From the NCBI GenBank assembly GCA_937924855.1, contig CALEYQ010000071.1, positions 10,507 to 74,506 of the forward strand: a stretch of 64,000 nt of DNA, read 5' to 3'. Position 1 is the stretch's first letter. Every line of letters starts with the position of its first letter. Positions 3,430-21,601 of the stretch are shown here, one piece after another. The translations under genes were made by a program, and so were the position numbers. Below the pieces are notes generated by a model that was not told the DNA's origin, did not search any database, and was given only the letters and a program-made list of their open reading frames with translations. Origin of the DNA: an uncultured Bacteroidota bacterium (GTDB lineage: Bacteria; Bacteroidota; Bacteroidia; JADZBD01).

Positions 3430-3431
3430 TC

Positions 3432-5346: not shown

Positions 5347-6616
5347 AGTTGAAAAATTTACCGTAGGCAAGGACAGGTACTTTGACAAATATCTTGTATT
5401 GTATGATCTGGAAGCCGGCAGGGCACATGCAAACATGTTGTGTTCCTGTGGATTTTTGACGACCACGGAACGGGAAAAAATAATTTCCTTACTTGAAAGG
5501 CTAAAGGAAAAATCCTCCTTGCAGGGTTTTGAAATTCCGGAAGCGTTTGAAGACATGCATTCCTGGATCGAAGCGGAATTAATTTCTGAGCTGGGTGATA
5601 CAGGAAAGAAAATTCATACGGCAAGAAGCCGGAACGATCAGGTATTAACTGCCCTCAAACTATATTACCGGGCTCAATTACTTGAAATTTCCGACAAGGC
5701 AGAGCAGTGGTGCTGCTTGCTGTTGGAGAAATCAGTAACCCATGCAGATGTTTTCATGCCGGGCTTTACGCATTGCCGGCCCGGAATGCCTTCCTCGGCC
5801 GGACTATGGCTTTCTTCCTTTGCTGAAGCTTTGTGTGACGACCTGGAGATGGTAGCAGGAGCCATGGCGATATGCGATAAAAATCCATTAGGAAGCGGTG
5901 CCGGTTATGGAAGTTCATTTCCCATAAGCAGAAAGGAGACAACGGAATACCTGGGTTTTTCTACTTATAATAAAAATTCCCTGCACGCTCAGATGTCCCG
6001 GCAAAAGGTGGAATCGGCTATTGCCTTTGCATTGGCATCGATGGGGCAAACGCTGTCGCGGTTTTCAAGCGACTGCATTCTTTTTTCTGCTCCTGAGTAC
6101 AATATACTTCAGATACCACCCGACTTTTGTACAGGAAGCAGCCTGATGCCAAACAAAAAAAATCCGGATGTTGCGGAACTGATACGGGGTCATAGCAGCC
6201 GGTTGCAATCTCTTCCTCAGGAAATAATTTCACTGTATCATAATCTTCCTTCAGGCTATCACCGGGATTTTCAATTGTCGAAGGAAATAATGATTCCGGC
6301 GCTAAACCGGATTAATCATTGCCTCGACATGGCTTTTCTTTTAACCGGAGGACTGAAGTTTTCTGAAAATATTCTCGAACGGGAAATATATAATCAGGTT
6401 TTTGCGGTGGAAGCCATTTCCGGAAAAGTACAGGGAGGCATGAGTTTCAGGGATGCTTACCGGGAAACCGGTGATGCTATTGAAGAGGGAAAATTTTTAT
6501 TCAAAGGCTCGCCCGTAAAGGCGACTCACGAGGGCAGCACGGGAAATTTATGCCTGCCCGAGCTGAAAGAAGATTTGAAAAGAGTAATGGATAAAATCAG
6601 CAGGAAAAATCAGTAA
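5306..6616 (+). CDS. argH: argininosuccinate lyase
   Basis: MKLWQK N-terminus and fumarate-lyase signature (GSSLMPNKKNPDVAELIRG). It overlaps argE by 41 nt. Confidence 0.9.
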   Translation: MKLWQKTNTVLHPEVEKFTVGKDRYFDKYLVLYDLEAGRAHANMLCSCGFLTTTEREKIISLLERLKEKSSLQGFEIPEAFEDMHSWIEAELISELGDTGKKIHTARSRNDQVLTALKLYYRAQLLEISDKAEQWCCLLLEKSVTHADVFMPGFTHCRPGMPSSAGLWLSSFAEALCDDLEMVAGAMAICDKNPLGSGAGYGSSFPISRKETTEYLGFSTYNKNSLHAQMSRQKVESAIAFALASMGQTLSRFSSDCILFSAPEYNILQIPPDFCTGSSLMPNKKNPDVAELIRGHSSRLQSLPQEIISLYHNLPSGYHRDFQLSKEIMIPALNRINHCLDMAFLLTGGLKFSENILEREIYNQVFAVEAISGKVQGGMSFRDAYRETGDAIEEGKFLFKGSPVKATHEGSTGNLCLPELKEDLKRVMDKISRKNQ

Positions 6617-8511
6617 GCCCGAACATTTTTTCCTTCCATGAAATTAATGAAGGCCCGGTTGGCAACCCGGTTTCCTCCGGGGGTGGGATAGTTTCCGGTA
6701 AAGTACCAGTCGCCCTTATGGTTCGGACAGGAATGGTGGAGTCCTTCAATGCTTTGGTAAATTACCTGTACCTCGGCCGAAATAAACTCCGATTTTAATA
6801 ACTGAGCCACCATGGATGAAACAGCATCGGCGGAGAAAGGCTTATATATTTCTTTTACTACGTTGATGGCCCGGTCGGGATGTTTTTCGTTTTGTTCGCG
6901 GGCCTTTTCAAGAACCTCATCGAGCAGCTCATCCATATTGTTTTGCCGGATCAGCTCAATGGCAGCCTGGAATGCCACAAAATCACCCATCTTGGCCATA
7001 TCTATGCCGTAGCAATCGGGGTATCGTATTTGCGGAGCCGAGGAAACAATTACTATTTTTTTCGGTCCGAGCCGGTCGAGAATGCGGAGAATACTTTGCT
7101 TTAAGGTTGTGCCACGTACAATGCTGTCGTCAATCACCACCAGATTATCAACCCCGGGCTTAACAATTCCGTAAGTGGTATCGTAAACGTGGGCTACCAG
7201 ATCATCCCGGTGCGAATCGTCGGTAATAAAAGTTCTCAGCTTGGCATCCTTGATGGCAATCTTTTCGATGCGTGGGCGCATAGCCAGGATGCGCATCATG
7301 TTATCGTCAACTTTCTGAGATCCCAGTTTCAGAATTTCGTGCTTCTGAATAACATTGAGGTGAGAATATAAACCTTCAATGAGTCCGTTGAAAGCTACTT
7401 CAGCCGTATTGGGTATGAAAGAAAACACAGTGTTCTCAAGGTCGTAATCGATAGATTTTAGTACCGCCGGGGTAAGGTATCGACCCAGATTTTTTCTTTC
7501 CCGGTAAATATCGCTGTCGTTGCCACGACTGAAATAAATCCGTTCGAAGCTGCATGATTTTTTTTCGCCGGGAGTATTGATCATTTCCTCACTTACCTTT
7601 CCGTTTTTCCTGATAATAAGCGCATGGCCCGGAGTAATTTCTTTAATATCGTTAAGCTGGACGTTGAAACAGGTTTGAATGGCAGGTCTTTCAGAAGTAA
7701 CCACAACCACTTCATCGTCGGCATAATAAAAAGCAGGTCTGATGCCATTGGGATCGCGAAGTACAAAAGCATCTCCATGTCCTATCATTCCGGCCATGGC
7801 ATATCCCCCGTCGAACTTGCGGGAGGCATTTTTTAAAATTTCGGGAATGTTGAGGTTATCGCCGATAAGACCGGAAATTTCCTGATTGGAAAAATTTTTA
7901 TCCTTGAACTGACGGAATAATTTTTCGTTTTCTTCATCCAGAAAATGCCCGATTTTTTCCATTACGGTTACCGTATCGGTTTTTTCTCTTGGGTATTGGC
8001 CGAGCTCTACGAGTTTGTCGAAGAGTTCTTCTACATTGGTAAGGTTAAAATTCCCTGCCACGGCCAGGTTCCGGGTTTTCCAGTTGTTCTGGCGAAGGAA
8101 AGGATGACAGGCTTCCATGGTGTTTTTTCCATAGGTGCCGTAGCGGAGATGTCCGAGCAAAAGTTCACCCACAAAGGGTGCATGTTTTTTCAGCCATTCC
8201 GGCTGCCGGGATTTTTCGGGTTTGTTTTTTCTCAGTTCTTCAAACTTCCCGTTTATTTTGGAAAAAATTTCGTGGATGGCATTGGCACCCACGGCACGAT
8301 GCCGGTGAATATAACGTGTGCCGGGTTTCAGATCGAGTTTAATCGTGGCAACTCCTGCACCATCCTGGCCACGGTTATGTTGCTTCTCCATCAGGAGATA
8401 CAATTTTTTAAGGCCGTAATAGGGAGTGCCGTATTTATCGGCGTAATAAGAAACGGGTTTAAGAAGCCTGATAAGGGCTATACCGCATTCATGTTTAATA
8501 GCATCACTCAT
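6610..8511 (-). CDS. purF: amidophosphoribosyltransferase (class II glutamine amidotransferase)
   Basis: MSDAIKHECGIALIR, with the N-terminal Cys nucleophile after Met removal, and a PRTase motif (LVVIDDSIVRGTTL). The stop overlaps the argH stop by 7 nt, convergent. Confidence 0.9.
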   Translation of the reverse strand: MSDAIKHECGIALIRLLKPVSYYADKYGTPYYGLKKLYLLMEKQHNRGQDGAGVATIKLDLKPGTRYIHRHRAVGANAIHEIFSKINGKFEELRKNKPEKSRQPEWLKKHAPFVGELLLGHLRYGTYGKNTMEACHPFLRQNNWKTRNLAVAGNFNLTNVEELFDKLVELGQYPREKTDTVTVMEKIGHFLDEENEKLFRQFKDKNFSNQEISGLIGDNLNIPEILKNASRKFDGGYAMAGMIGHGDAFVLRDPNGIRPAFYYADDEVVVVTSERPAIQTCFNVQLNDIKEITPGHALIIRKNGKVSEEMINTPGEKKSCSFERIYFSRGNDSDIYRERKNLGRYLTPAVLKSIDYDLENTVFSFIPNTAEVAFNGLIEGLYSHLNVIQKHEILKLGSQKVDDNMMRILAMRPRIEKIAIKDAKLRTFITDDSHRDDLVAHVYDTTYGIVKPGVDNLVVIDDSIVRGTTLKQSILRILDRLGPKKIVIVSSAPQIRYPDCYGIDMAKMGDFVAFQAAIELIRQNNMDELLDEVLEKAREQNEKHPDRAINVVKEIYKPFSADAVSSMVAQLLKSEFISAEVQVIYQSIEGLHHSCPNHKGDWYFTGNYPTPGGNRVANRAFINFMEGKNVRAY

Positions 8512-8575
8512 TGATTGCTCCGAAGCGGGGTAAAGTTACGGATTTTTGAGCCCGGGGAAAAGGAGTTATCCAATT

Positions 8576-9760
8576 TTATTCACCCCTCTTTGAGAGGTAA
8601 ACATGGACAAATGCCTTATTTTTATCTTTGAGGAGCGCTTTTTTATCGTTGAGCATATCAGGCGCCTTAAGAAGGTCCATTTTTTGATCATCGGCTTGAA
8701 AGGAAAACCACTGAAAACCGGTTTCAGGCCGTTGGGCAAGTTCGTTTTTAGCCTGGATAGAAAAGATCTCCACCTCTGAAAAACCTGTTTTTTTACGGAT
8801 AATCAATCCGGTCAAGTCATCAAAAATCGAATGTTTCGATTCCTGGTAGGAGGCTTTTAAAAGAGATTCCAGATTGGTTTTTTTAAGGTTCAGCAATCCT
8901 TTTAAGGCATGCAGGGAGCCGCCTATTCCCTCCTGGGTGCTTTGCAGGATTATGAGGTAATTCCAATCTTGAATTTTTTCCAGGGAAAGGGCCATCGGAA
9001 TAATTCCCTCCGGGATAAAAAGATCTAATGTTATCTCCGGAATTTGATGATTTAATTTTTCAGCCGAAGGAAAATAAGATTGTTGAATCAAGCCTGCATA
9101 AACAATACTTTCCTGAAGCTGGTTGTTTTTATTTTCTACAATATGTTGCTGTCGGGTTAGTTCGTGACTTTGATTTTTTAGGATCGTGTTTGTTTTTTTT
9201 CGATGTAGAAAAGTCTTTATCCCAACCAGTACAATTCCTATGCTTAGGCAAAGGGCCAGCAACAGACTGGCAGACACCCACCTTTTTTTTCGGATATTAT
9301 CTTCATTTATGGAGGAGTTAAAGGCTAAAATATTTTTTTCTTTTTCCAACAGCAGTATGTCCTGTTTTTTCTTTTCCAATTCAAGATTTTTCCTGAGTTT
9401 TTCAATTAGCACTCTGTTTTTTTGTTGCTCTAACGAATCCTGATCTTCCCTGGCTTTTTCACCGAAATAAATATACATGGCAAATTGTTTATCCATCAGG
9501 TAAATTTGGGAAAGGAGGAGGCAGGATTTGATTTTTAATTCCCTGTTACCTAATGAATCGGCCAGGTTAAAAGCCTTGTTTCCAACCGCAAGAGCTTTTT
9601 CTGTTTCTTTGCCATTGGCAAAATTTTGTGCCTGTGTAAGCCATGCCGCAATGTCGACGGAGTCCTTACTATCCGATGGCCCCTGTAGGGTGTTCGCCGA
9701 CACAACCGGTTGAGGAAGGAAACTAAGGAGAATAAAAAACCAATTCCTTATGGTCTTCAT
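8576..9760 (-). CDS. membrane protein, degenerate SpoIIE/PP2C-like paralog (predicted pseudophosphatase): signal peptide, TPR-like region, coiled coil, TM helix, C-terminal PP2C-like domain lacking catalytic Asp motifs
   Basis: Signal peptide MKTIRNWFFILLSFLPQPVVSA, a coiled-coil K/E region and TM helix ASLLLALCLSIGIVLVGI. The C-terminus aligns with the neighbouring PP2C domains (IQQSYFPS vs LQKSFLPD), but GDFY is replaced by PEGIIP and DCTGHG by QSTQEG. It overlaps the upstream paralog by 4 nt. Confidence 0.6.
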   Translation of the reverse strand: MKTIRNWFFILLSFLPQPVVSANTLQGPSDSKDSVDIAAWLTQAQNFANGKETEKALAVGNKAFNLADSLGNRELKIKSCLLLSQIYLMDKQFAMYIYFGEKAREDQDSLEQQKNRVLIEKLRKNLELEKKKQDILLLEKEKNILAFNSSINEDNIRKKRWVSASLLLALCLSIGIVLVGIKTFLHRKKTNTILKNQSHELTRQQHIVENKNNQLQESIVYAGLIQQSYFPSAEKLNHQIPEITLDLFIPEGIIPMALSLEKIQDWNYLIILQSTQEGIGGSLHALKGLLNLKKTNLESLLKASYQESKHSIFDDLTGLIIRKKTGFSEVEIFSIQAKNELAQRPETGFQWFSFQADDQKMDLLKAPDMLNDKKALLKDKNKAFVHVYLSKRGE

Positions 9761-11997
9761 ACCGATAAGCCTAAAAATGTAATATCATCTGTCTGTTCCG
9801 TTTCTCCCATCCAGGAAAGCAATAATTCGCGGAGATCGTTTTCCTGTTGTTGGAATCGAAGTCCCGATTTTGAAAGAGTTTTCATTATTTTTTCTTGTGA
9901 AATTTTCTTTTTAGTAGCCTCCCCTTTTTGATCGGCGAATCCATCGGAGAATAAATAATATTGATCGCCCGGGGCCTTAGAAAAAGTAATTTCCCTGAAA
10001 GTGGTTTCCCCGGAAAGTCCCAGAATTTTCTTTTCTGTTTTAAGGGAAGATAGTTTATCCGGATTATCCTGTTTTCTTATCCAAAGGGGTTGTCTGCAAG
10101 CGGCATAGGTCCCGGTCCCATTTTCTTCGGGTAAATTAATTATGGAAATGTCCATCCCCAACACATCATTGCCATACAGGCTATGTTTCTCAAAAAGGAT
10201 TTGGTTTAATCGGGTTAACAATGCCTCGGGCCGGTGATTTTCCTGAAGCCGGGTTAACTGCTCCAGCATTTCATAGGCTAAAAAAGACATATAAGCCCCG
10301 GGAACACCATGGCCCGTGCAATCAACCACGGCCAGGAGTGTATAGCCCGTAAATTCCTTTACATAATAAAAATCTCCACCAATTTTTTCCTTCGGTTTAT
10401 ACAGAAGAAAGGATTTCCGAACCGGATTTTTAAGTTTTGTCAGATCCGGCAAAAATGATTTTTGAAGTTCATAGCCGAATTGTAACTGACGGATGAGATT
10501 GCCATGAATTTTCTCGGCTTGATTTTTTTTTGATTCTATTTGATGGTTTAACGAGGCAAGTTTGGCTTGTTGCTTCTTTTTTTCGTTAATGGAATAGTAG
10601 AGCAAAAAGCCAAAGCCCGTTACCAGAATGATTAATGCGGCAGAGGAAGCAAGAAACAGATTTTGTTTTTTAATCGCTGATTTTTGATTTTCGATGGACA
10701 GCAGATGCAAGGCATTTTCTTTTTCGAGCAATTCAATTTTATTTTCTTTTTTTTCCGCCTCAAAGGCGGTTTGCATTTCATTCATTTCTTTGCTTCCTCC
10801 GGAACGAAGCAAGCTGTCTTTCAGCCGGGTGTATGCACCAAAATATTCTGCAGCCAGGGCTTGTTTATTGGTGCTCAGGCACAAGCCGTAAAGTTGTTTC
10901 AGGCAATTTGATTTTTGTTCTCTGAGTCCAACCTTTTCGGAAATGGACAAAATTTCCAACAGCAGGTTTTGTTCTTTTTCATAGTTTTTTAATTGGTGGT
11001 AAATTTCCGATTGAACCGTAAGAACTTCGGCCAGGCTGTGCATTTCATTTTTTACTCTGAAATATTGTTCGGCACTTTTAGAATACCGAAGGGCCTCGCC
11101 AAACTCTTCGGTTTCAAGGTAAGCCCGGGCCAAATTGTTGGAAATGGTAGCCAGCCCCTGAAGGTTGTTTATTTTTTTGGAAGCTTGGAACCCTTCTTTG
11201 AAAAAATGAAGTGCCTGGCCGGGTTGTTTCAGTTCCAGATATTGAACGCCCAGGTTTGTATAAAACACTGATAAAATATATAAGTCATTTTCTTTTGAAG
11301 CCAGTTCAATGCCTTCAAGATAAGTTTCGATGGCCAGATCACGGTTTCCGTTTATCCCATACATGAGGGCCATGTTATTGAGGGCAAAAAGAGCTCCACT
11401 GCCATTCCCTGATTTTTTATAATACCGGTAGGCCTGGGTAAAATATTCCAGCGCTTTTTCATGTCGGCCCTGGTAACGGTAAACACTGGCTAAATTGTTA
11501 TAGGTGTTGGCCAATCCGGCCGTATCTTTTTTTTGCAGTTGGAATTTTTTTGCCTGCTCATGTTTTCGAAGGGCCTGGTCATAGTCGCCCATAATAAAAT
11601 GAATGATTCCCATATTGGAAATAACAGAGGCCATGGAAGCGGTATCGTTCAGAACTTTGCGACAGGCAAGTGCCTTTTCATAATAAAATAAAGCGCTGTC
11701 ATATCCACCCTGGAAATGAAAGGATATTCCAATGAGATTCAGGGCAAGTGATTTTCCCCTTAAAAAATTTATTTTTTCACTTAGGAGAAGGGCCTGTTGT
11801 CCATATTTTCGGGCAGAATCTCCGTTGCTTCTTTTATATTCTAAACCCAGGTTTGACAGGGAAATGGCTCTGGTAGTATCGGGAATTTTTTTCCTTAATT
11901 CCTGGCGGATTGAATCTTCTCTTTCCTTATGGGAAGAAAAAACAAAGATTCCGAGGAATGCGATTACCCCAAAAATGTACCTGCTTCGTAAAATCAA
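9757..11997 (-). CDS. transmembrane TPR-repeat protein with C-terminal SpoIIE/RsbU-type PP2C serine phosphatase domain
   Basis: N-terminal TM/signal, about 430 aa of TPR repeats, a second TM (LFLASSAALIILVTGFGFLLYY), a coiled coil, then GGDFYYV and VVDCTGHGVPGA PP2C metal-binding motifs. Confidence 0.85.
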   Translation of the reverse strand: MILRSRYIFGVIAFLGIFVFSSHKEREDSIRQELRKKIPDTTRAISLSNLGLEYKRSNGDSARKYGQQALLLSEKINFLRGKSLALNLIGISFHFQGGYDSALFYYEKALACRKVLNDTASMASVISNMGIIHFIMGDYDQALRKHEQAKKFQLQKKDTAGLANTYNNLASVYRYQGRHEKALEYFTQAYRYYKKSGNGSGALFALNNMALMYGINGNRDLAIETYLEGIELASKENDLYILSVFYTNLGVQYLELKQPGQALHFFKEGFQASKKINNLQGLATISNNLARAYLETEEFGEALRYSKSAEQYFRVKNEMHSLAEVLTVQSEIYHQLKNYEKEQNLLLEILSISEKVGLREQKSNCLKQLYGLCLSTNKQALAAEYFGAYTRLKDSLLRSGGSKEMNEMQTAFEAEKKENKIELLEKENALHLLSIENQKSAIKKQNLFLASSAALIILVTGFGFLLYYSINEKKKQQAKLASLNHQIESKKNQAEKIHGNLIRQLQFGYELQKSFLPDLTKLKNPVRKSFLLYKPKEKIGGDFYYVKEFTGYTLLAVVDCTGHGVPGAYMSFLAYEMLEQLTRLQENHRPEALLTRLNQILFEKHSLYGNDVLGMDISIINLPEENGTGTYAACRQPLWIRKQDNPDKLSSLKTEKKILGLSGETTFREITFSKAPGDQYYLFSDGFADQKGEATKKKISQEKIMKTLSKSGLRFQQQENDLRELLLSWMGETEQTDDITFLGLSV

Positions 11998-12016
11998 TAA
12001 AAAGAAATTATGGTTG

Positions 12017-13033
12017 TCACAGGAAATCTTCCTTGTTTAATTTGAGCCAGTTTAAAGCTGAGCCTGCCAACAACATTTCCATGGTGCCAGAATCTAAACC
12101 CATGGTTTTTATTAGCTGGCCCGGATTATTTTCTCCCAAGGGAAAAGGGTAATCGGATCCGAGAGCAATTTTATCTGCTCCGAATTTTTCAATCAGCACC
12201 TTTAGCATCACCGGGTCGTGAACCAGGCTGTCGAGCCAGAATTTACCGAGGTAGTTTTTGGGCGGAACCGGATTGTCAACCGCCGTAAGGTCCGGACGGC
12301 AATCGAAGCCATGCTGGATTCTTCCGATAGTAGCGGGAAACGAACCACCTCCGTGAGCAAAGGCAATTCTCAATTGAGGAAGGTTTTCCAAAACGCCGGA
12401 AAAAATCAAACTGCAGATGGCTCTTGATGTTTCCGCGGGCATACCTACCAGCCAGGGGAGCCAGTATTTCTGCATATACTCTTCACCCATCATTTCCCAG
12501 GGATGCACCATCACAGCCATAGAAAGTTTTTCGCAGGCCTGAAAAAATTCAAAAAATTCAGGATCACCCAGATTTTTTTGATTGACATTAGAGCCGATCT
12601 GAACGCCCGCGAGTCCAAGCAGTTTGCACCGTTCAAGTTCCTGAATGGCGAATTTAGGATTTTGCAGGGGAACCGTTCCCAATCCTATGAACCGTTTCGG
12701 ATACCGGTCGATAACCGAAGCCATGTGGTCGTTCAGGAATTGAGCAACGCTCAATCCGTGTTCGGGCTTAATCCAATAATTGAACATAACCGGAACAGTA
12801 CTTAAAACCTGAACATGTACCCCTTGATGATTGCAATCCTTAATTCGGGCTTCGGGTTCCCAACAATTTTCTTCAATTTCCCGGAAAAATTTCCCGTCGT
12901 CGCGCATCATTTTTGCACAACAGGGCTTGTGATGTTCCAGATAAATAAACCCGCCGTAGCCGAATTTCTCCTTCCATTTCGGAAGTTCTTTCGGCAAAAT
13001 GTGGGTATGTATGTCGATGGTGAGTAAACTCAT
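12017..13033 (-). CDS. 2-amino-3-carboxymuconate-6-semialdehyde decarboxylase (ACMSD; amidohydrolase-2 family)
   Basis: Near full-length colinear similarity to metazoan/bacterial ACMSD: IDIHTHILPKE, FGYGG, ENCWEPEARI, LSTVPVMF, KYWLPWLVGMPAET, AFAHGGGSFP, LGSDYPFPLGE. Confidence 0.9.
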   Translation of the reverse strand: MSLLTIDIHTHILPKELPKWKEKFGYGGFIYLEHHKPCCAKMMRDDGKFFREIEENCWEPEARIKDCNHQGVHVQVLSTVPVMFNYWIKPEHGLSVAQFLNDHMASVIDRYPKRFIGLGTVPLQNPKFAIQELERCKLLGLAGVQIGSNVNQKNLGDPEFFEFFQACEKLSMAVMVHPWEMMGEEYMQKYWLPWLVGMPAETSRAICSLIFSGVLENLPQLRIAFAHGGGSFPATIGRIQHGFDCRPDLTAVDNPVPPKNYLGKFWLDSLVHDPVMLKVLIEKFGADKIALGSDYPFPLGENNPGQLIKTMGLDSGTMEMLLAGSALNWLKLNKEDFL

Positions 13034-15021
13034 TTTCCTTTTTTTGCGGCTTCCACCTGATTGAATTTGGTAAACCAGGGTTGGGCTTCTTCATTTCTGC
13101 CCATGTTCTGATAGGTGGCGGCAATAAATTTATAGGCCAGGGCGTAATTTTTGTCTACTTCTATGGTTTTCTTGAAATAGTAAATTGCTTTTTCGAATTC
13201 TTTGTTGGCCTCCTCAACCTTCCCCTGAGCCTTCAGGTTCTCACCTACAGTACCGTAAACCGATCCCAAATTGCAGAGGGCATCGTTATATTCGGGATTG
13301 AGTTCAATGGCTTTCTTGAAATAAAATTCCGATTCCACAATTTTTCCTGTGGAGAACAAACAGGTTCCGTAGTTATTGTAATAGGTGGCATTGTTGGCAT
13401 TTAATTCCATGGCTCTTTTATAGGCCACGGCCGCCATTTCGTAATTTTTTATCTCGAAATAAATTTTTCCTACCTGGTTGTGGGCATCCGGAAATTGTTC
13501 CCAGATGGAAAGTGCTTTGGTTAATTCATCAAGGGCCAGTTTTAAGGTGGCTTCCTTTGTTTGAGGGTTCATTACAGCCAGACTGTCTTTGTTGGTTATC
13601 ATATTGGCATGATAAAACAACATATGGGCTGAGTTAGGAACGATTTTGATGTCATTATTAAAGAGGGTCTTTACGGTTTCCCAGTCCTGATTCCTCGACC
13701 ATGTTTTCGCAAAAAAGGGCAGACAAAGGAGTCCGACAACACCGGCAATTTTTGAATTTTGCTGAAAAAAATCACTGATGCCGGAGTAATAGGAATTGTC
13801 TTCCGTTTTAAAGAGGCGACTTAACAAGACAACCACGGCCAGAGCAAAGCCCAAAGAGGGGGCATACAATAAACGGTCGGCCATATTGGTTCCAATTATG
13901 GTAAACAAATTGGAGGCAATAGACATGGTGATGAAGTAAAACAAGATGCAAAAGCTGAGCAGGCTTTTTTCTTTGAATTTTTTAAGGGCAAAAATCAGGA
14001 GGAATAGGTGAACCCCGAGGGAAAGCAGGAACCAGGGGTTGCCAAAAGAAGTTATTATAGGAATGGTATTGTAGGAATAATCGCAGGATAGGGGATGGGG
14101 GAAAATCAGGAGCTTTAAATACAAGCCCAGAATATAAATGGCGGTGGCTTTTTGGTGGGCGACATTATCGGTGGCCATCAGGGAATTATCCACCACCGGA
14201 ACCCTGCCCAGGGATGGACTAAATCCTCCTACCACAGAATAGTGGATAATCAGGTAAAGGGCGGTTACTCCTGCCATGATGATCGAAATCCGGATGAGTT
14301 TTTTCTTAGGGTCTTTGAAAAAGAACCAGATGGCCAGTGGAAAAACAGCGAGATATGTAATGGACGACTCCTTACTAAGCAAACTCAGGAAAAAGCAGAG
14401 GCCGGAAAGCAGGGCAAATTTCATGTCCTCGCTCTTCATATAGCGGTAGATACACCATAATGCTCCGAGCAAAAAGAGGAAGCTCAGAATTTCGTCGCGA
14501 CTTTTGATATTCGCAACTACCTCGGTATGGATGGGATGTACGGCGAAAATCAGGGTGGTTAAAAAAGGGATGATGAGGTTTCCTTTCAGAAATTTATGAA
14601 GCACGAGAAACAGGAGCCAGGCGGTAAAGGCATAGAGCAAAACATTAACCCAATGGCTCAGGGCGGGATTGTCTTCGGAAATGTCCCACTCAATGGCAAA
14701 CATGATCTTGGAAAGAGGTCGGTAGAGTCCGCTTTCGTCATTTCCCGTTCCTGCCCGGTAGGTTGATGTCAGAATTTCGGGAATGGCAGAAACACCCTTT
14801 TGGGTCATTGTATTTTCCTTAATTACCGAAAAGTCGTCGAGAACATATTTGTGGTTAAGGGTATTTGAATAAACAAGGAATGCGATGAAAACCAGGATGA
14901 GGCCGGCGGTTTTTAAGATTTTAGGGCTCCCGGCAGTAGTTGTTTTGGGCTGGGGTGGCTTTGGGGAATTGCTTGCCTCGGAAACCGAGAACTTTTTTTT
15001 CTTTTTGGCCATGGCTCTCAA
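13030..15021 (-). CDS. TMTC-like membrane protein: N-terminal multi-TM GT-C/DUF1736-type domain plus C-terminal TPR repeats (putative protein O-glycosyl/mannosyl-transferase)
   Basis: About 10 predicted TM helices followed by a TPR-rich C-terminus (YKRAMELNANNATYYNNYGTCL...). It is a paralog of 21596-23227, and its stop overlaps the ACMSD start by 4 nt. Confidence 0.75.
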   Translation of the reverse strand: MRAMAKKKKKFSVSEASNSPKPPQPKTTTAGSPKILKTAGLILVFIAFLVYSNTLNHKYVLDDFSVIKENTMTQKGVSAIPEILTSTYRAGTGNDESGLYRPLSKIMFAIEWDISEDNPALSHWVNVLLYAFTAWLLFLVLHKFLKGNLIIPFLTTLIFAVHPIHTEVVANIKSRDEILSFLFLLGALWCIYRYMKSEDMKFALLSGLCFFLSLLSKESSITYLAVFPLAIWFFFKDPKKKLIRISIIMAGVTALYLIIHYSVVGGFSPSLGRVPVVDNSLMATDNVAHQKATAIYILGLYLKLLIFPHPLSCDYSYNTIPIITSFGNPWFLLSLGVHLFLLIFALKKFKEKSLLSFCILFYFITMSIASNLFTIIGTNMADRLLYAPSLGFALAVVVLLSRLFKTEDNSYYSGISDFFQQNSKIAGVVGLLCLPFFAKTWSRNQDWETVKTLFNNDIKIVPNSAHMLFYHANMITNKDSLAVMNPQTKEATLKLALDELTKALSIWEQFPDAHNQVGKIYFEIKNYEMAAVAYKRAMELNANNATYYNNYGTCLFSTGKIVESEFYFKKAIELNPEYNDALCNLGSVYGTVGENLKAQGKVEEANKEFEKAIYYFKKTIEVDKNYALAYKFIAATYQNMGRNEEAQPWFTKFNQVEAAKKGK

Positions 15022-15075
15022 AAGTAAGAAATCGGACCGGATTTAAAAGCGGAAAAGAAAGCAATAAATCTGTTT

Positions 15076-17064
15076 TTGCACTACCGGCATAAACCTATAT
15101 TTGCAGGAACGGCCCCTGGCAGTTTAAGGGGATCTTCAGTAATATTACATCCGGCCAAAGTACTTGTTTCCATGAGCATCATAATCGAAAAATTCGAAAC
15201 CGAATTCAGTAAGTTACAGAGTCCGGAAGAACAGGTAGATGCTATACTGGCTTTTTCGCTCAATTACCTGGAATCGAAAAGAGAATATTGCCTGGAAAGG
15301 GCGAAAGCGGCTATGGAAATTTCCCTCAAAAGCAACTACAGGGATGGCATAGTGCTTTCAAAATTTCTGAACGCCTTTCTGCTTAACGAATACCATGAAT
15401 ATGCCAAAGCCGAATCGGAGCTCAGAGATGCGATTTCAGGTTTTGATTCCTTGAAATCGATACGCGCAAAGGTTATTGCTTCTAATTTTCTGAGTTATTT
15501 TTTATGGTATATGGGTCGGTTTGATGAAGCCCTCTCTGTTATTTACAAAGCCCTTGAAATTACCGCCGATGTGGAAGATCCTCAGCCTGTTGGATGGGTA
15601 CATTATGCACTGGGAACCTTTCATCACGACCTAAATGATTTTTCACAAAGCCGGACCTATTTTGAAAAGGCTCTTGCCTTTTTTGAGAAAGCCAAATACC
15701 CCTATGGAATGGGCAGGAGTAAGAACGGGCTTGCCTCTCTCTTGATCCGGGAGGGAAAATACACTGAAGCCCGTGCTATACTTGAGGAATTGCTGGTTCT
15801 TTACCGTAACCTTGAAATGTCGGCTGCGGAAGGACGAACCCTCAGCGACCTTGGCGACATAGAATTTCGGGAAGGCCGGTTTGAGGACGCATATTCCCTT
15901 TTCCGGGAAGCTCTTGATCTCAGGCGGAGAATAAATCACAAACAAGGCAAAACTACCTCCCTCATTCAGGTAGCCCAATGCCTTTTTGAACTTGGAAAAA
16001 CCGATGAGGCTGAAAAAATAATTGCCGAAGGCCTTGAGATGGCCCGCGAAACGAATACCCGTGTCAAGCAAGCCCAATGCCTTCATCTTTTATACCGGAT
16101 TCATAAATCTAAGGGACAACCCGGCGAGGCCCTGACCTATATGGAAAAATTTTATGAGATTCGCTCTCAGGTTTATGGTGACCAGTCCGCAAACAGAATA
16201 AAACAGATTCAAGCGGCTCATGCCTCTGCCTCGGCCCGGAAAGATGCGGAAATTGAACGCCTGAAAAACGTTGAACTAAAACAAGCCCACGATCAAATCC
16301 GGGAAAAAAACAAGGAGATTCTCGATAGCATTACCTATGCCCGCCGCCTCCAGGATGTGATACTTCCTGCCGAGACGGAAATTGAAAAATCATTTAAAGA
16401 GGCTTTTGTTTTGTATCAGCCCAAAGATATCGTTGCGGGCGATTTCTATTGGTTTCACCGGCAAAACGACTTTGTTTATTTTGCACTGGCCGACTGTACC
16501 GGACACGGGGTTCCGGGTGCTTTGGTAAGCCTCATTTGTCACAACGCCCTGAACCGGGCCCTGCTGGAATATAAAATGGAAAGTCCGGGTGCTATTTTGG
16601 ATAAAACCCGGGAGGTGGTTACCGGTTTTTTTGGTAAAGGAAATCAGCATGTCAGAGACGGTATGGACATAGGGTTGTTTCGATATCATCCTCCTTCCCG
16701 TGAACTTGTAATTTCTTCGGCCAATATTTCATTCTGGATTTTTAATTCGCCCAATAATCTTCCTGAGAAAATTTCCGGACAAAAACAACCGGTTGCTTTT
16801 TTTGAGAACCCAAAACCCTTTTCAGAGCTCCGGATTAAAACCGGACAAGGCACAAGGATTTATGTTTCCTCGGATGGTTATTTCGATCAGTTCGGAGGAC
16901 CGGCAGGGAAAAAACTGAAATCCGGGAATTTTTCAAAGATTTTGGGAGGTATACAGGGGCAGTCCCTGGACCGGCAAAGGGAAGAACTCCGGCAGAAATT
17001 TTTGGAATGGAAGGGAAGCCTTGAGCAGATAGATGATGTTTGTGTTGCGGGATTCACCTTTTAA
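15076..17064 (+). CDS. cytoplasmic TPR-repeat protein with C-terminal SpoIIE/RsbU-type PP2C phosphatase domain
   Basis: TPR repeats, a coiled coil, AGDFYWF and ALADCTGHGVPGA motifs, and no TM segment. The true start may be the internal ATG at 15172 (MSIIIEKF). Confidence 0.85.
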   Translation: MHYRHKPIFAGTAPGSLRGSSVILHPAKVLVSMSIIIEKFETEFSKLQSPEEQVDAILAFSLNYLESKREYCLERAKAAMEISLKSNYRDGIVLSKFLNAFLLNEYHEYAKAESELRDAISGFDSLKSIRAKVIASNFLSYFLWYMGRFDEALSVIYKALEITADVEDPQPVGWVHYALGTFHHDLNDFSQSRTYFEKALAFFEKAKYPYGMGRSKNGLASLLIREGKYTEARAILEELLVLYRNLEMSAAEGRTLSDLGDIEFREGRFEDAYSLFREALDLRRRINHKQGKTTSLIQVAQCLFELGKTDEAEKIIAEGLEMARETNTRVKQAQCLHLLYRIHKSKGQPGEALTYMEKFYEIRSQVYGDQSANRIKQIQAAHASASARKDAEIERLKNVELKQAHDQIREKNKEILDSITYARRLQDVILPAETEIEKSFKEAFVLYQPKDIVAGDFYWFHRQNDFVYFALADCTGHGVPGALVSLICHNALNRALLEYKMESPGAILDKTREVVTGFFGKGNQHVRDGMDIGLFRYHPPSRELVISSANISFWIFNSPNNLPEKISGQKQPVAFFENPKPFSELRIKTGQGTRIYVSSDGYFDQFGGPAGKKLKSGNFSKILGGIQGQSLDRQREELRQKFLEWKGSLEQIDDVCVAGFTF

Positions 17065-17082
17065 ATTATCCGACATTCTCCT

Positions 17083-19230
17083 TTGATTTGTACCTTAGTA
17101 TCCGGTATGCGGATATTCCTGGTATTGTTTTTTATTCTCCCCTTTTTTTCCAATCAGGCATTGCGCTCACAAACGCGGAAAATTGATAGCTTGAAAATTG
17201 CTTTTGAAAATCAACCCGACGATACCAACAAAATAAGAACCGGCAACACTCTGATTTGGGACTTAAAAGATTTTGACCCGTCCAAAGGTATTGAGATTGG
17301 AGAAAGGGTAATGGAGCTTGCAAAAAAGCTGAACCACAAAAGGGGCCTTGCATTTTGTTATAACAATCTGGCGGTAATATATCTCGATAAGGGAGATTAT
17401 CAGCAATCGCTGAAATATAATACCTGGTCGCTGGAAATTAAAAAGGAATTGAAACTGAAGGATAAAATTCCGGGTAGCCTCAACAATATAGGATTGGTAT
17501 ATAAAAACATAGGCGAGTACGACAAAGCCTTGTCGTTTTATTTTGAAGCCCTTAAAGTAAACGAAGAACTCAGGAATAAGAAATGGATTGCCACAAACCT
17601 TTCCAATATTGCCATTGTATATAAGGAAATGAAAAACTTTGAAAAGGCAGATGAGTATTACAAGCAAGCTTTAAAGGTTATTGATCCAAAGGAAGAGCCT
17701 GCCCAGTTTATGAATATTAATACCGGGCTGGGTAATTTATTCCTTCAAAAAAAGGAATATAAAAAGGCTATGGAGCACTATAGGAAAATTGAGGATTTTC
17801 TTGAGGAGAATCCCAATCCCAGGAGTGAAGCCATTAATTATTCAAACATGGGCCTGGTTTATAACGGGGAAAGGAATCATGAAAAGGCGCTTGAATATTT
17901 TCATAAGGCCCTGAGTATTTCCGAACGGCTCGGGGAAAAGACCAAGGTGGCTCTGCTTTCTGCAAACCTGGCCTCGGTTTATCTGGGCAAAAGGAAGTAC
18001 CACGAAGCAAAAAAGTACGCTCAAAATTCTTTGGATTTAGCGCGGGCACTTTATGCCAGAAAGGAAATTTCTCTTGCCCTGGAGTATCTGGCCAAAGCCC
18101 AATACGGATTGGGAGCATATAAAGAAGCCTATGAAAATATGGAAGAATTCGCCTTGTATAATGACTCACTCCAAAAAACCGACAGGGAAAGCCGTTTTGC
18201 TGAGGTAGAGGCTCGTTACAAAATAAAAAACAGGGAACTGGAAATTGAAAATCTCCAAAAAGAGAATTTGCTGAAGGAATCTGAATTGCGATTTAAAGAA
18301 GATTCACTCCGCAAACAAAACATTTTAGTGCTCACCTTCGCCCTCGGGTTTATTATTACCGGTGTAATGGCCTGGTTTATTTTCCGGGGTTATAAAGCCA
18401 AAACGGAAGCTCATAAAATTATCAGTCGCCAAAAGGAAATTGTTGATCAGAAAAACAACGAAATTCTGGATTCCCTGACCTATGCCAAGCGACTGCAGGA
18501 TGCTATTTTGCCTACACCTAACGAGATTAACCGGTTTTTCCCTGGTCATCAGTTGTTTTACCTCCCCAAAGATGTGGTGGCCGGCGATTTTTTCTGGGTG
18601 GATGAAAAAAACGATAATGGTGGGAACCCGGTATATTATTTTGCCGTAGCCGATTGTACGGGCCACGGTGTTCCCGGTGCCCTCGTAAGCGTGGTGTGTT
18701 CCAATGCCCTGCACCGCTCCCTGCATGAATTCAAAAAAATAAAGCCTGATGAATTGCTGGAAAAATGCCGGGATCTGGTTATTGAAACCTTCGAAAATTC
18801 CGAATCCCAGGTTCATGATGGAATGGATATTTCCGTGCTTGCTTTTAATTCTGCCACCCGCGAGATTCAATGGGCCGGAGCCAACCGTCCTTTATGGGTT
18901 TCCTTGAAAAAGGAAAACGGGAAAATAAAATCCTTTGCCCCCGATAAACAATCTGTTTCTTCCGGTGAAATGCGTAATCCTTTCACCCTTCACACTTTTT
19001 CTCCGGATCAGGGCGACCGTATTTTTTTGTTCACCGATGGTTTCGCCGATCAGTTCGGTGGACCTGAAGGAAAAAAGTATAAAACCAAAAACCTGAAACG
19101 CTTTCTGGAGAATTCCTTCAACAATCCCTTTACAGTAATGGGAAAAAGAATAAATGAAGAATTTTCAGGATGGAAAGGAAAATACGACCAGGTTGATGAT
19201 GTTTGTGTGTTCTGTTTTGAAATATCCTGA
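17083..19230 (+). CDS. transmembrane TPR-repeat protein with C-terminal SpoIIE/RsbU-type PP2C phosphatase domain
   Basis: Signal/TM N-terminus, TPRs, a second TM (ILVLTFALGFIITGVMAWFIF), AGDFFWV and AVADCTGHGVPGA motifs. Same architecture as 9757-11997. Confidence 0.85.
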   Translation: MICTLVSGMRIFLVLFFILPFFSNQALRSQTRKIDSLKIAFENQPDDTNKIRTGNTLIWDLKDFDPSKGIEIGERVMELAKKLNHKRGLAFCYNNLAVIYLDKGDYQQSLKYNTWSLEIKKELKLKDKIPGSLNNIGLVYKNIGEYDKALSFYFEALKVNEELRNKKWIATNLSNIAIVYKEMKNFEKADEYYKQALKVIDPKEEPAQFMNINTGLGNLFLQKKEYKKAMEHYRKIEDFLEENPNPRSEAINYSNMGLVYNGERNHEKALEYFHKALSISERLGEKTKVALLSANLASVYLGKRKYHEAKKYAQNSLDLARALYARKEISLALEYLAKAQYGLGAYKEAYENMEEFALYNDSLQKTDRESRFAEVEARYKIKNRELEIENLQKENLLKESELRFKEDSLRKQNILVLTFALGFIITGVMAWFIFRGYKAKTEAHKIISRQKEIVDQKNNEILDSLTYAKRLQDAILPTPNEINRFFPGHQLFYLPKDVVAGDFFWVDEKNDNGGNPVYYFAVADCTGHGVPGALVSVVCSNALHRSLHEFKKIKPDELLEKCRDLVIETFENSESQVHDGMDISVLAFNSATREIQWAGANRPLWVSLKKENGKIKSFAPDKQSVSSGEMRNPFTLHTFSPDQGDRIFLFTDGFADQFGGPEGKKYKTKNLKRFLENSFNNPFTVMGKRINEEFSGWKGKYDQVDDVCVFCFEIS

Positions 19231-19232
19231 AT

Positions 19233-20177
19233 ATGCGGCAGCTATTTGTTTGCTTTTATAGTGTTTTGTTTTTCGCAGCCTGCGGACCTCCCAAATCCAA
19301 CCGCCTTCCGGTTCCCACCCAACCCTTTATTACCGTGCTGGGTATTGCACAGGATGCCGGATATCCACAGGCAGGCTGTAATAAAACCTGTTGTGCCGCC
19401 TACTGGTCAGGCATCAGGCCCAAAGCTATGGTGGCATCGCTGGGTATTGTTGATCCTGTCAGCGGACAAAAATGGCTGATTGATTGCACGCCTTCGTTTC
19501 CGGAACAATGGTATCGCATGGAGATGCTTCTCCCCGAAAAGACCTGGAGCGGTATTTTTTTAACCCATGCCCACATGGGACATTATGCCGGCCTCCTGCA
19601 CCTGGGTCGTGAAGCCATGAACGCGCAGAAGATGCCCGTATTTTGCGATTCTGTTTTTGCCCGCTTCCTTGAAACGAATGGGCCTTTTTCGCAGTTGGTA
19701 AAACTGGAAAACATCGTTCTGCATCCCATTATGCCGGATCAAACCCTTACCCTGAACGAAAGGATTTCCATAACCCCATTTACCGTACCTCACCGGGATG
19801 AATTTTCCCCCACTTTCGGTTACCGGATTTCTTCCGCAGGAAAAAAAATTATTTTTATTCCTGATATCGATAAATGGGAAAAATGGGATTCGGATATTGT
19901 TCAATGGGTTAAAGAGAACGACCTTCTTTTTTTAGACGGCACCTTTTTCCGGGAAGGTGAAATTCCGGGCCGAAACATGTCTGAAATTCCGCATCCTTTT
20001 GTTTCTGAAACCATGCAGCTAATGGCAAAACTTCCCCCTGAAGAAAAGCAAAAAATCCATTTCATCCATTTTAATCATACCAACCCACTGATTTTTCCCG
20101 ACAGCCCCGAAACGGAAGAAATAAAAAAAGCGGGCTTTAATTGTGCCCGCGAAGGAATGATGTTCGAACTGAATTAA
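19233..20177 (+). CDS. MBL-fold metallo-hydrolase (PqqB-like), predicted lipoprotein
   Basis: Lipobox FFAACG and a metallo-beta-lactamase motif THAHMGHYAG. Its stop shares a TTAA with the convergent downstream gene. Confidence 0.7.
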   Translation: MRQLFVCFYSVLFFAACGPPKSNRLPVPTQPFITVLGIAQDAGYPQAGCNKTCCAAYWSGIRPKAMVASLGIVDPVSGQKWLIDCTPSFPEQWYRMEMLLPEKTWSGIFLTHAHMGHYAGLLHLGREAMNAQKMPVFCDSVFARFLETNGPFSQLVKLENIVLHPIMPDQTLTLNERISITPFTVPHRDEFSPTFGYRISSAGKKIIFIPDIDKWEKWDSDIVQWVKENDLLFLDGTFFREGEIPGRNMSEIPHPFVSETMQLMAKLPPEEKQKIHFIHFNHTNPLIFPDSPETEEIKKAGFNCAREGMMFELN

Positions 20178-20698
20178 ACCGGTTTGGATGGGGGCTCCAT
20201 AACATGCCCGCACTTTTTACAGGTTCTAAGTTCCTCAGAACCATAAAACTCGGCAAAGGTTTCCTGAAACTGGGTCATGATATTGGTAAGCTGGAACTTT
20301 TTCTCGTAAAGTTTTTCATTGCATTTTTCACAAAACCACATCAGTCCGTCTTTTTCTCCCTCCCGGCGTTTGCGCTCCATTACCAGGCCAATGGTATTGG
20401 CACCGCGTTTGGGATTGTGGGGTACTTTGGGAGGCAATAAGAAAATATCCCCCTCTTTAATGGTTACCTCAACGGCTTTCCCGTTTTCCTGTAATCCCAC
20501 ATTTATATCACCCTCCAGCTGATAAAAAAACTCCTCACTTTCGTTGTAATGGTAGTCCTTTCTGGAGTTTGGTCCTCCCACCACCATTACAATAAACTCG
20601 GTGTCTTCATAAACAACTTTGTTGCCAACGGGGGGCTTAAGCAAATGACGGTTTTCGTCGATCCACTTTTTGAAATTAAATGGTCTTTGTATGGGCAT
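20174..20698 (-). CDS. 3-hydroxyanthranilate 3,4-dioxygenase
   Basis: Colinear similarity to HAAO/NbaC: GGPNSRKDYH, EEFFYQLEGD, GDIFLLPPKVPHNPKR, ANTIGLVMERKR, and a C-terminal CxxC...CxxC rubredoxin-like site. Confidence 0.9.
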   Translation of the reverse strand: MPIQRPFNFKKWIDENRHLLKPPVGNKVVYEDTEFIVMVVGGPNSRKDYHYNESEEFFYQLEGDINVGLQENGKAVEVTIKEGDIFLLPPKVPHNPKRGANTIGLVMERKRREGEKDGLMWFCEKCNEKLYEKKFQLTNIMTQFQETFAEFYGSEELRTCKKCGHVMEPPSKPV

Positions 20699-20815
20699 TT
20701 TATGTTTACTTTAAATACCAAGATACTTACTTTGAGGCGTATTTAAAAATATTGGAATCATTTTTTAAATGGCGATTGGTTTATACAAGGGAGTAATATT
20801 TCCTAACTTAGTGGG

Positions 20816-21601
20816 ATGGATTTGAATTTAAAAGGTAAAACGGCCCTTGTCTGCGGAAGCACCCAGGGAATCGGTAAGGCCTGTGCCCTGGAACTGGCCG
20901 GCCTGGGCGCAAGGGTTATTCTGATGGCCCGCAACACGGAAGCCCTGGAGGAAGTTCTGAAAGAACTGGATACCATTTCACGGCAAATTCACGGGTTTCT
21001 TGTTGCTGATTTTTCAAACCCCGGCCAGGTTAAAGATGCCATTCAGTCTTTTGTCAAGGGAAACCCGGTTCATATTCTGGTAAATAATACCGGAGGTCCT
21101 CCGGGCGGCCCTGCTGAATCCGCACCCGCCGAGGAATTTACCAAAGCCTTTTCCGCCCATCTGCTTTGCAACCATCACCTGATGCAGGCGGTTGTTCCCG
21201 GAATGAAGAGCAAACAATACGGCCGTATTATTAATATTATTTCTACTTCCGTAAAACAGCCCCTTAAAGGATTGGGTGTTTCAAACACCGTTAGAGGCGC
21301 AGTTGCCAACTGGAGTAAAACCCTTGCAGGAGAACTTGGCAGGTATGGTATTACCGTGAATAATGTGCTTCCCGGAGCCACCCTCACCGGTCGCCTTTCT
21401 TCCATCATTGAAACCCGTGCCGGAAAGGAAGGTCTTTCCAAAGATGAAATATCCCGTCACTTTTTAGAGGAAATTCCTATGGGAAGGTTTGGAAATCCGG
21501 AAGAGATTGCGGCTGCTGTAGCTTTTCTTGCTTCACCCGCTGCGGCCTATATCAACGGAATAAATCTTCCGGTTGACGGGGGACGAACCGGTTGCTTATA
21601 A
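20816..21601 (+). CDS. SDR-family oxidoreductase
   Basis: TALVCGSTQGIGKA Rossmann motif, NNTGG, and the short-chain dehydrogenase fold. Confidence 0.8.
   Translation: MDLNLKGKTALVCGSTQGIGKACALELAGLGARVILMARNTEALEEVLKELDTISRQIHGFLVADFSNPGQVKDAIQSFVKGNPVHILVNNTGGPPGGPAESAPAEEFTKAFSAHLLCNHHLMQAVVPGMKSKQYGRIINIISTSVKQPLKGLGVSNTVRGAVANWSKTLAGELGRYGITVNNVLPGATLTGRLSSIIETRAGKEGLSKDEISRHFLEEIPMGRFGNPEEIAAAVAFLASPAAAYINGINLPVDGGRTGCL

Follow-up and report, generated by a model that had tools for sequence, protein, structure and literature searches.

What do four neighbouring, related genes do for a bacterium when three of them encode intact phosphatase domains and the fourth is cut short; and is the short one a working component or a relic? 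The question is posed by a stretch of 64,000 nucleotides (nt) from an uncultured Bacteroidota bacterium (GenBank assembly GCA_937924855.1, contig CALEYQ010000071.1, positions 10,507 to 74,506 of the forward strand), referred to here as the window. The genes, which we call A to D, are A (8576–9760, reverse strand, 394 amino acids (aa)), a membrane-anchored pseudophosphatase remnant; B (9757–11997, reverse strand, 746 aa) and D (17107–19230, forward strand, 707 aa), predicted transmembrane phosphatases in which tetratricopeptide repeats (TPRs) precede a PP2C domain; and C (15172–17064, forward strand, 630 aa), a soluble phosphatase of the same TPR–PP2C kind. We judge it reasonably probable that B, C and D are active phosphatases related to SiaA and controlled by their TPR arrays, and that B has in A a pseudophosphatase as its partner.

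The four open reading frames (ORFs) are present where an initial annotation of the sequence had put them (8576–9760, 9757–11997, 15076–17064 and 17083–19230). Mechanically called, the ORFs of C and D run from the TTG codons at 15076 and 17083. The true starts are likely to be the ATG at 15172 for C, since its homologs are ~630 aa long, and the ATG at 17107 for D, because a 707-aa database entry that is 100% identical (P0001) begins there. A box of the TAnnTTTG type, described below, precedes the proposed start of C.

Catalytic domains of the SiaA-like branch

The C-terminal domains of B (aa 551–745, nt 9763–10347), C (nt 16474–17046) and D (aa 510–706, nt 18634–19224) match the Pfam family SpoIIE (PF07228) with 80.9, 50.7 and 66.0 bits, respectively, against a gathering score of 25 (E = 1.5e-22 for B and 2.8e-13 for C). 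All three retain the motifs GDF[YF], DCTGHGVPGA, G[ML]DI, [ST]DG[FY].DQ and Q.DD[VI], which map to invariant columns in a family alignment of 92 sequences (D and 91 others, B included). The profile searches, in which B, C and D pass for both PF07228 and TPR families, and the motif alignment thus uphold the initial annotation, which had described PP2C domains with intact GDF(Y/F) and DCTGHGVPGA motifs at the ends of these proteins. Given the intact motifs, B, C and D are predicted to be active metal-dependent Ser/Thr phosphatases.

The label ‘SpoIIE/RsbU-type’ that had been attached to the domains is correct at the level of the Pfam family only; in sequence and in predicted structure, their closest relative is SiaA (PA0172), which serves as the phosphatase in the SiaABCD partner-switch pathway of Pseudomonas aeruginosa. 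A sequence search of the PDB with the C-terminal 281 residues of D gave a single match, the PP2C domain of SiaA (6K4E, E = 5e-22). The AlphaFold2 model of D (predicted local distance difference test score (pLDDT) 88.6) was also matched best by 6K4E in Foldseek (E = 4e-18, TM 0.91, root mean square deviation 2.1 Å), followed by RsbX, Rv1364c, RssB, SpoIIE and tPphA at E values of ~1e-8 to 1e-9. The NCBIfam model of SiaA (NF038263) recognizes B, C and D with E values of 5e-35, 2e-49 and 3e-34, over model positions ~390–658 only, and the corresponding scores (121.1, 168.7 and 118.5 bits, with 15.6 for A) are below its equivalog cut-off of 700. SiaA and the three domains have the motifs YA..Q.AILP, GDFY, DC.GHGVPGAL and TDGF.DQ.GG in common, and in the alignment to 6K4E the aspartates of D fall on SiaA D474/C475, D534, D600 and D604, for which roles as metal-ligand residues have been described (PMC7647112). 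Because the PDB match, the NCBIfam scores and the Foldseek ranking all favour SiaA, we place the domains, on these sequence and model comparisons, as bona fide members of PF07228 in a SiaA-like branch.

The resemblance extends to a membrane-anchored sensor and an N-terminal helix that leads into the PP2C domain. The sensors themselves differ: the sensor region of SiaA (model positions ~1–390) is unmatched in the window proteins, which instead have an array of TPRs and a simple helical stalk, and no HAMP domain was found by Pfam in B or D.

Predicted repeat sensors joined to the phosphatase by a helical stalk

TPRs make up most of the N-terminal part of B, C and D, in which TPR_12 (E = 5.5e-37, 3.9e-32 and 3.1e-38, respectively) is one of many Pfam TPR families matched. 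In B, a signal or anchor segment (aa 2–20) is followed by a TPR array (~aa 43–362), a putatively periplasmic coiled-coil stalk, a second transmembrane (TM) helix, TM2 (aa 447–465, nt 10603–10659), and a helical linker. D has a signal or anchor helix (aa 2–20), eight TPRs (aa 24–356, nt 17176–18174), a less confidently modelled stalk helix (aa 364–400) and TM2 (aa 406–424, or 414–432 in the mechanical ORF; nt 18322–18378). Its repeats are modelled as 17 helices that form an eight-TPR superhelix, the best Foldseek matches of which are the peptide-binding TPRs of LGN/Pins. The array of C (~nt 15373–16230) is joined directly to the PP2C domain by a helical linker. Hydropathy analysis detects a hydrophobic N terminus and a single internal TM helix in both B and D, and no hydrophobic or TM segment in C.

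This layout, several TPRs between a signal or first TM segment and TM2, is the input design of FimS of Porphyromonas gingivalis and the SusR-family regulators of Bacteroides; it is found in B and D, is absent from C and occurs in A with ~1.5 repeats. FimS has been described as consisting of TM1, a periplasmic domain of eight TPRs, TM2 and a kinase (PMC11053733). The NCBIfam FimS model matches the TPR regions of B, C and D (E = 4e-24, 3e-14 and 2e-28) with 52–99 bits against a cut-off of 600; SusR matches are weaker, are restricted to B and C and reach 20–33 bits against a cut-off of 480, so that both remain below the equivalog level. Precomputed matches to TPR_SusR (PF28559) exist on homologs. 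The output is where the systems part, a cytoplasmic PP2C domain here versus a histidine kinase in FimS or a helix-turn-helix domain in SusR.

Among the 120 best homologs of D, 95 have a signal-like N terminus and one TM helix, and the remainder are mostly N-terminally clipped gene calls that start at a conserved IDSL motif. Around TM2 in D homologs, the counts of charged residues are 4.6 (K+R) and 0.7 (D+E) after the helix and 4.1 (K+R) and 2.8 (D+E) before it, a net charge that is clearly more positive on the C-terminal side. On the basis of these hydropathy and charge heuristics and of the analogy with FimS and SusR, the TPR part of A, B and D is most likely periplasmic and the C-terminal part cytoplasmic. 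A periplasmic TPR sensor coupled to a cytoplasmic phosphatase in two of the proteins, and a third without any membrane segment, is also what the initial annotation had proposed. Lipoprotein signals were considered for A, B and D and rejected, as none of them has a Cys close to where the hydrophobic N-terminal segment ends.

Between the membrane and the phosphatase, the D model contains one continuous helix (aa 408–467) that runs from TM2 through the linker into the PP2C domain. We measured stalk length in 253 homologs as the distance from a DS[IL] motif on the predicted periplasmic side to a cytoplasmic YA..IQ motif, and found that lengths cluster at 87, 93, 100, 106–107, 113–114, 121 and 127 residues, in steps of approximately one heptad. 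This is the pattern expected if a coiled-coil helix carries the signal. In RsbU, formation of a coiled coil by the linker dimerizes the phosphatase domains through α0, α1 and α2 and thereby turns on metal binding, a mechanism proposed to be general for bacterial PPM phosphatases (PMC12143880); the main text of that study makes no mention of transmembrane or TPR architectures. The SiaA PP2C domain, likewise, is a tight homodimer held together by its N-terminal helix and the next two (PMC7647112). RsbU, RsbP and SpoIIE share with the window proteins the PF07228 domain and a helical linker that leads directly into it, to which the heptad-stepped stalk lengths seen here may be added. They differ in being cytoplasmic or in having other sensors (RsbT-binding, PAS, REC, GAF or HAMP), and their similarity to B, C and D is weaker than that of SiaA.

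Partner genes and the sigma-factor alternative

Pfam was run on 59 greedily chosen, non-overlapping window ORFs of at least 70 aa, and NCBIfam on the small ones left unannotated; ORFs of <70 aa, and those overlapping a longer one by >60 nt, were set aside. No STAS, SiaC/DUF1987 (PF09345), DUF6272 (PF19788), HATPase_c_2, Pkinase, GGDEF or sigma-factor domain was found in the 59 ORFs. The same domains are absent from the Pfam-annotated neighbourhoods of eight homologous Bacteroidota loci and from a small-ORF screen of 18 further ones (~26 loci in total, with flanks of 6–10 kb). Counterparts of siaB, siaC and siaD, which flank siaA and encode a kinase, the DUF1987 phosphoprotein and a diguanylate cyclase, are thus found neither among the scanned window ORFs nor at the homologous Bacteroidota loci, a further difference from the SiaABCD system. 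The statement in the initial annotation that no STAS or HATPase partner is encoded nearby is borne out and, judged by the homologous loci screened, holds for TPR–PP2C genes in Bacteroidota generally.

The screen is able to detect such partners. In Sulfurospirillum cavolei, the only non-Bacteroidota locus in the set (L029; NZ_BBQE01000001.1, 5455–7834, forward strand), a gene for a SiaA-like PP2C is followed by a DUF6272 gene (PF19788, E = 4e-31) and then by siaC (PF09345, E = 2e-36). The arrangement has the appearance of a siaABC-like operon, here in a member of the Campylobacterota, and the DUF6272 protein is, by position only, a possible SiaB-type kinase.

These results bear on the reading under which B, C and D are RsbU-type initiators of sigma-factor partner switching, as is implied by the JGI name ‘serine phosphatase RsbU (regulator of sigma subunit)’. 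Membership in PF07228 is in keeping with it, as is the usual action of this family on STAS proteins (PMC11418112). We nevertheless regard it as unlikely: the catalytic domains are far closer to SiaA than to RsbU, RsbX, SpoIIE or Rv1364c in both sequence and predicted structure, the RsbT-binding N-terminal domain of RsbU is absent, and neither the scanned window ORFs nor the homologous loci contain an RsbV- or RsbW-like gene or a sigma factor. The sole related locus with partners, that of Sulfurospirillum, has SiaB-like (DUF6272) and SiaC (PF09345) proteins.

Two-component genes were seen at two places. In the window, a HisKA/HATPase_c kinase and an OmpR-type response regulator are encoded 5 kb downstream of D (24243–26470, reverse strand); in Parvicella tangerina, such a pair directly follows one TPR–PP2C gene (L002, 12774–14697), which may be a coincidence.

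A truncated paralog without catalytic motifs

The product of gene A matches no Pfam TPR or SpoIIE family and does not pass PF07228. BLASTP nonetheless aligns it to D (E = 1e-11) and B (E = 3e-8) over a region that takes in the last TPR, coiled coil, TM helix and linker and reaches into the first part of the PP2C domain, and the NCBIfam SiaA model matches it weakly (E = 0.004) at positions 390–479 only. A has IPMAL in place of GDF and QSTQEG in place of DCTGHG, and its sequence stops short of the TDG..DQ and DD motifs. By sequence, A is a real paralog of B and D that is truncated and catalytically dead; because the first two motifs are replaced and the last two absent, it is no catalytic member of PF07228. 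The initial annotation had counted it as a fourth TPR protein built on a PP2C domain, of which the paralogy is confirmed and the domain content is not.

What remains is a stalk with little at either end. The AlphaFold2 model (pLDDT 75.9) places after a signal peptide (aa 1–22, VSA|N) ~1.5 TPR-like repeats of three helices (aa 32–89), a long helix of 137 residues (aa 93–229, pLDDT mostly >90) that contains the TM segment recognized by hydropathy (aa 163–181, nt 9218–9274), and a degenerate N-terminal piece of the PP2C fold comprising a β-hairpin (256–274), α1 (278–294) and α2 (297–308). The linker and PP2C remnant together are encoded at nt 8837–9193 (reverse strand), and the tail (aa 309–394) is of low confidence or disordered. 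A Foldseek search of the PDB with this model returned nothing at E ≤ 1e-3 and only weak matches to two TPRs.

Conservation of the B–A pair

A full HMMER search of 1.84 billion representative sequences with A gave 1,802 matches at E ≤ 1e-3. The four best non-self relatives (P0242, 332 aa; P0243, 328 aa; P0244, 550 aa; P0249, 434 aa) have in common the truncation and the replacement of DCTGHGVPGAL by QS..[HE]G[VI].G[SA]L. Three of the four relatives could be placed on contigs, and B followed by A was found in three other Bacteroidia genomes (L012, L013 and L033). In the window, the stop codon of B and the start codon of A overlap in an ATGA (9757–9760, reverse strand); the same 4-nt overlap (ATGA or GTGA) is present in the three relatives, in which the B orthologs are 745–746 aa long. 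The overlap suggests translational coupling of A to B. On the other side of A, all three have a GATase/amidophosphoribosyltransferase gene, as does the window, and an Amidohydro_2 gene lies upstream of B in L013 and L033 (the L012 contig ends just upstream of B). Identity to the window proteins is 37–41% for B, 29–32% for A, 74–76% for the GATase and 70% for the Amidohydro_2 protein.

Among the three relatives, nonsynonymous divergence (dN) is 0.39–0.49 for A and 0.27–0.39 for B. Synonymous divergence (dS) of both genes is saturated and undefined by the NG86 method; we used dS of the neighbouring GATase gene, which is 1.69 between the same two genomes, as a proxy rate for A. Since dN of A is far below this value, A appears to be under constraint, slightly less so than B (rough ω of ~0.2). 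Conservation in the A clade peaks in the coiled coil (E[TL]EKK.Q[ED]I.LL.K), the TM helix, the linker and α1, with a linker motif of ELE.Q..I.EQKN.L..SI.YA..IQQ..FP. In SiaA and RsbU, these are the elements that build the interface for dimerization and switching. Each of the four A proteins and each of the four B proteins has exactly 113 residues from DS to YA.

The conservation also bears on two readings in which A has no role for B. In the first, A acts alone as a membrane-anchored scaffold or substrate decoy, through its PP2C remnant or its disordered tail. It finds a precedent in the C-terminal domain of Escherichia coli RssB, which resembles A in being derived from a PPM phosphatase, having lost catalysis and being kept for the binding of regulatory proteins; bacterial PPM pseudophosphatases with an adaptor role are known (RssB: PMC6546054, PMC10755785), and A is conserved and constrained. 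However, RssB is a cytoplasmic protein with a complete PP2C fold to which a receiver domain is fused, whereas A is membrane-anchored, retains the N-terminal third of the fold only and is encoded directly after an active paralog. Because only β1-β2-α1-α2 are kept, without a Foldseek match to PP2C, little of the substrate-binding face is left. Conservation in A is highest in the stalk, TM helix and linker rather than in the tail, and its coupling to B in four of four genomes argues for a shared function. We consider independent action of A quite improbable.

Least probable, in our estimate, is that A is a functionless, decaying pseudogene fragment from a TPR–PP2C duplication and the locus a set of three ordinary phosphatase genes: the lack of any Pfam domain match, the loss of at least four of five acidic catalytic motifs and of the C-terminal half of the fold, the predicted disorder of the C-terminal 85 residues, the widely varying ortholog lengths (328, 332, 394 and 550 aa) and the faster evolution of A than of B (29–32% versus 37–41% identity) would suit decay, but an intact ORF, its 4-nt overlap and its position between B and the GATase gene have been kept in four genomes at a neighbour dS of 1.69, dN is far under that value, and the A clade keeps a specific replacement motif (QS..[HE]G.[SG]GSLH[AS]L) together with the coiled coil, TM helix and linker and an invariant 113-residue spacing.

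A contig profile search with the pseudophosphatase alignment gave at least 19 loci, nearly all with canonical phosphatases, and no new B–A pairs among the matches listed. At least 19 contigs, the longest of them 289,779 nt, encode the exact A protein; they stem from more than 10 metagenome samples held at JGI and ENA. Ten retrieved contigs (L034–L043) are identical to the window in nucleotide sequence across A and as much as 1 kb of either flank, so A offers no polymorphism to analyse; a single clonal population seems to have been sampled repeatedly.

A different phosphatase-less gene was observed in a Bacteroidia metagenome-assembled genome (MAG), within a tandem TPR–PP2C array (L016; JALHPG010000046.1, 7234–8538, forward strand). 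Its product, 434 aa long, comprises a signal peptide, TPRs, a coiled coil, a TM helix and a linker helix and stops ~30 residues past YAKRIQ, with no PP2C domain. Independent of A, it is a second kind of paralog that lacks the phosphatase, and hints that truncated partners of this kind may arise repeatedly.

Distribution and history of the family

A search with D gave more than 1,731 matches at E ≤ 1e-5, and one with C at least 7,989 from 8,000 candidates that were scored. Of the 120 best matches per search, essentially all combine TPRs with SpoIIE, and those with organism names come from Bacteroidia, Flavobacteriales, Crocinitomicaceae and similar Bacteroidota. Databases label them ‘tetratricopeptide repeat protein’, ‘SpoIIE family protein phosphatase’ or ‘serine phosphatase RsbU’. 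Tandem sets recur: Parvicella tangerina carries two such genes within 10 kb, an ENA scaffold has two side by side, Vicingus serpentipes has a run of four SpoIIE genes, and several MAGs have runs of three or four.

The initial annotation had interpreted the cluster as a dense paralog expansion, which is not what the comparisons indicate. B, C and D are only 24–28% identical to one another, and the closest relatives of C (40%) and D (36%) elsewhere exceed the 28% identity between C and D; for this reason, a recent tandem duplication of C and D was rejected. C belongs to a conserved soluble subfamily of ~630 aa with 34–40% identity over the full length. In L033, the TMTC-like gene (see below), Amidohydro_2, B and A are present, with no C or D between the TMTC-like and metallo-β-lactamase-fold genes. 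Because of the low mutual identity, the closer relatives elsewhere and the absence of C and D from this genome, B, C and D are old paralogs of different subfamilies that have become co-located, with no recent local burst. Tandem arrays are common in Bacteroidota. Three active genes in a cluster are in themselves nothing unusual in the phylum, and the conserved pair of active B and dead A is a modest but real new observation.

Genomic surroundings

Upstream of B, on the same strand, are an Amidohydro_2/ACMSD-like gene (12017–13033, reverse strand), 19 nt from B, and a TMTC-like GT-C glycosyltransferase gene with TPRs (13030–15021, reverse strand; Pfam PMT_2, TMTC_DUF1736 and TPR) that overlaps it by 4 nt. 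The order TMTC-like, Amidohydro_2, B, A is conserved in L033, in which the first two proteins are 58% and 70% identical to those of the window. A second TMTC-like membrane protein, with a PMT_2/TMTC_DUF1736 GT-C fold and C-terminal TPRs by Pfam, is encoded at 21596–23227 (reverse strand), such that TMTC-like genes are indeed interleaved with the cluster, as first described.

The divergent intergenic region upstream of C contains the box TATATTTG (15093–15100, forward strand), read from the sequence, which fits TAnnTTTG, which we take to be the −7 promoter consensus of Bacteroidota. Promoter (including sigma-70) and terminator scans of 6000–21000 were uninformative, because sites were no more numerous than in shuffled sequence.

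The ACMSD-like gene next to B, a linkage kept in L033, is one of three genes for de novo NAD synthesis by the kynurenine branch that are scattered around the cluster, the others being those for 3-hydroxyanthranilate 3,4-dioxygenase (20174–20698, reverse strand; 3-HAO, E = 3e-60) and kynureninase (34801–36081, forward strand; KYNU_C). The window opens with a near-complete arginine biosynthesis cluster (44–6616, forward strand) comprising the end of an argininosuccinate synthase gene and genes for a semialdehyde dehydrogenase (argC-like), a class-III aminotransferase (argD-like), a carbamoyltransferase, an amino-acid kinase (argB-like), an M20 peptidase (argE-like) and a Lyase_1 protein (argH-like). 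Farther downstream, a protein with a CotH kinase domain (37415–39019, forward strand; E = 7e-56) carries a C-terminal sorting domain of the type IX secretion system (T9SS), which implies that this CotH-type kinase is secreted or surface-attached. Other T9SS cargo proteins are encoded at 23283–24242, 26598–27386, 56044–58249 and 59971–61878; the T9SS sorting domains on several window proteins assign the organism to Bacteroidota.

Discussion

The reading that we favour, active SiaA-like phosphatases under TPR control with A as a partner of B, can be put as a mechanism. An N-terminal array of about eight TPRs would control each of B, C and D. In B and D the array would lie in the periplasm, connected to the PP2C domain by a single helical stalk that consists of a periplasmic coiled coil, the TM helix and the cytoplasmic linker α0. 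The array would bind a ligand, in view of its LGN-like superhelix probably a peptide or protein; binding would shift the packing or register of the dimeric stalk, and the resulting switch of α0, α1 and α2 would permit metal binding and activity. The phosphatase would then dephosphorylate a phospho-Ser/Thr regulator encoded elsewhere, most plausibly, by family analogy, a STAS or SiaC-type protein. C would follow the same scheme with a cytoplasmic TPR sensor. A, made by translational coupling, may pair with B or compete with B–B pairing, and in this way set the activity of B; we propose the pairing because A keeps just the stalk, TM helix, linker and α1–α2, the elements that form the dimer interface in SiaA.

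Several points weigh against this scheme. The argument for selection leans on a neighbouring gene as a proxy, as ortholog dS is saturated for both A and B, and the 113-residue spacing is common (31 of 253 homologs) and could have been inherited from a B-like ancestor. The topology comes from our own hydropathy and charge heuristics, and K and R are similar in number on both sides of TM2 in B and D. In the D model, the periplasmic stalk has a pLDDT of 55–68 and a break at 401–407. The scanned window ORFs and the ~26 homologous Bacteroidota loci contain no gene for a substrate, kinase or output. No experimental study of the TPR–PP2C architecture was found in the literature searched, which agrees with the initial description of the module as uncharacterised, although annotation databases already label the architecture. 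What the analyses show directly are the domain identities, the catalytic motifs kept or lost, the hydropathy, the predicted folds, the synteny and conservation of the B–A pair and the lack of partner genes in the scanned window ORFs. That the sensors are periplasmic and signal through the stalk, what kind of ligand and substrate they have, and that A interacts with B is what we infer from these results, the interaction purely so, with four pairs being too few for a coevolution analysis.

A stronger form of the partnership is possible, and we hold it only tentatively: B and A may constitute an obligate asymmetric transmembrane receptor, in which B senses and catalyses and the sensor-poor, dead A contributes a stalk, TM and α0–α2 surface. 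If this is true, A would set the activity or ligand response of B, much as pseudokinase subunits do in receptor kinase heterodimers, and B would be the first bacterial PPM phosphatase with a dedicated pseudophosphatase paralog as its regulator.

TPR–PP2C genes are very numerous in Bacteroidota genomes. Kinship with SiaA supplies a structure, a known type of substrate and a known dimer interface as a starting point, and the placement relative to SiaA, FimS and SusR, combined with the heptad-stepped stalk, yields a testable model of transmembrane signalling. The B–A pair is a compact system in which to ask whether pseudophosphatase subunits regulate receptor phosphatases; if so, the heteromeric control known from eukaryotic pseudokinases would extend to bacterial PPM signalling.

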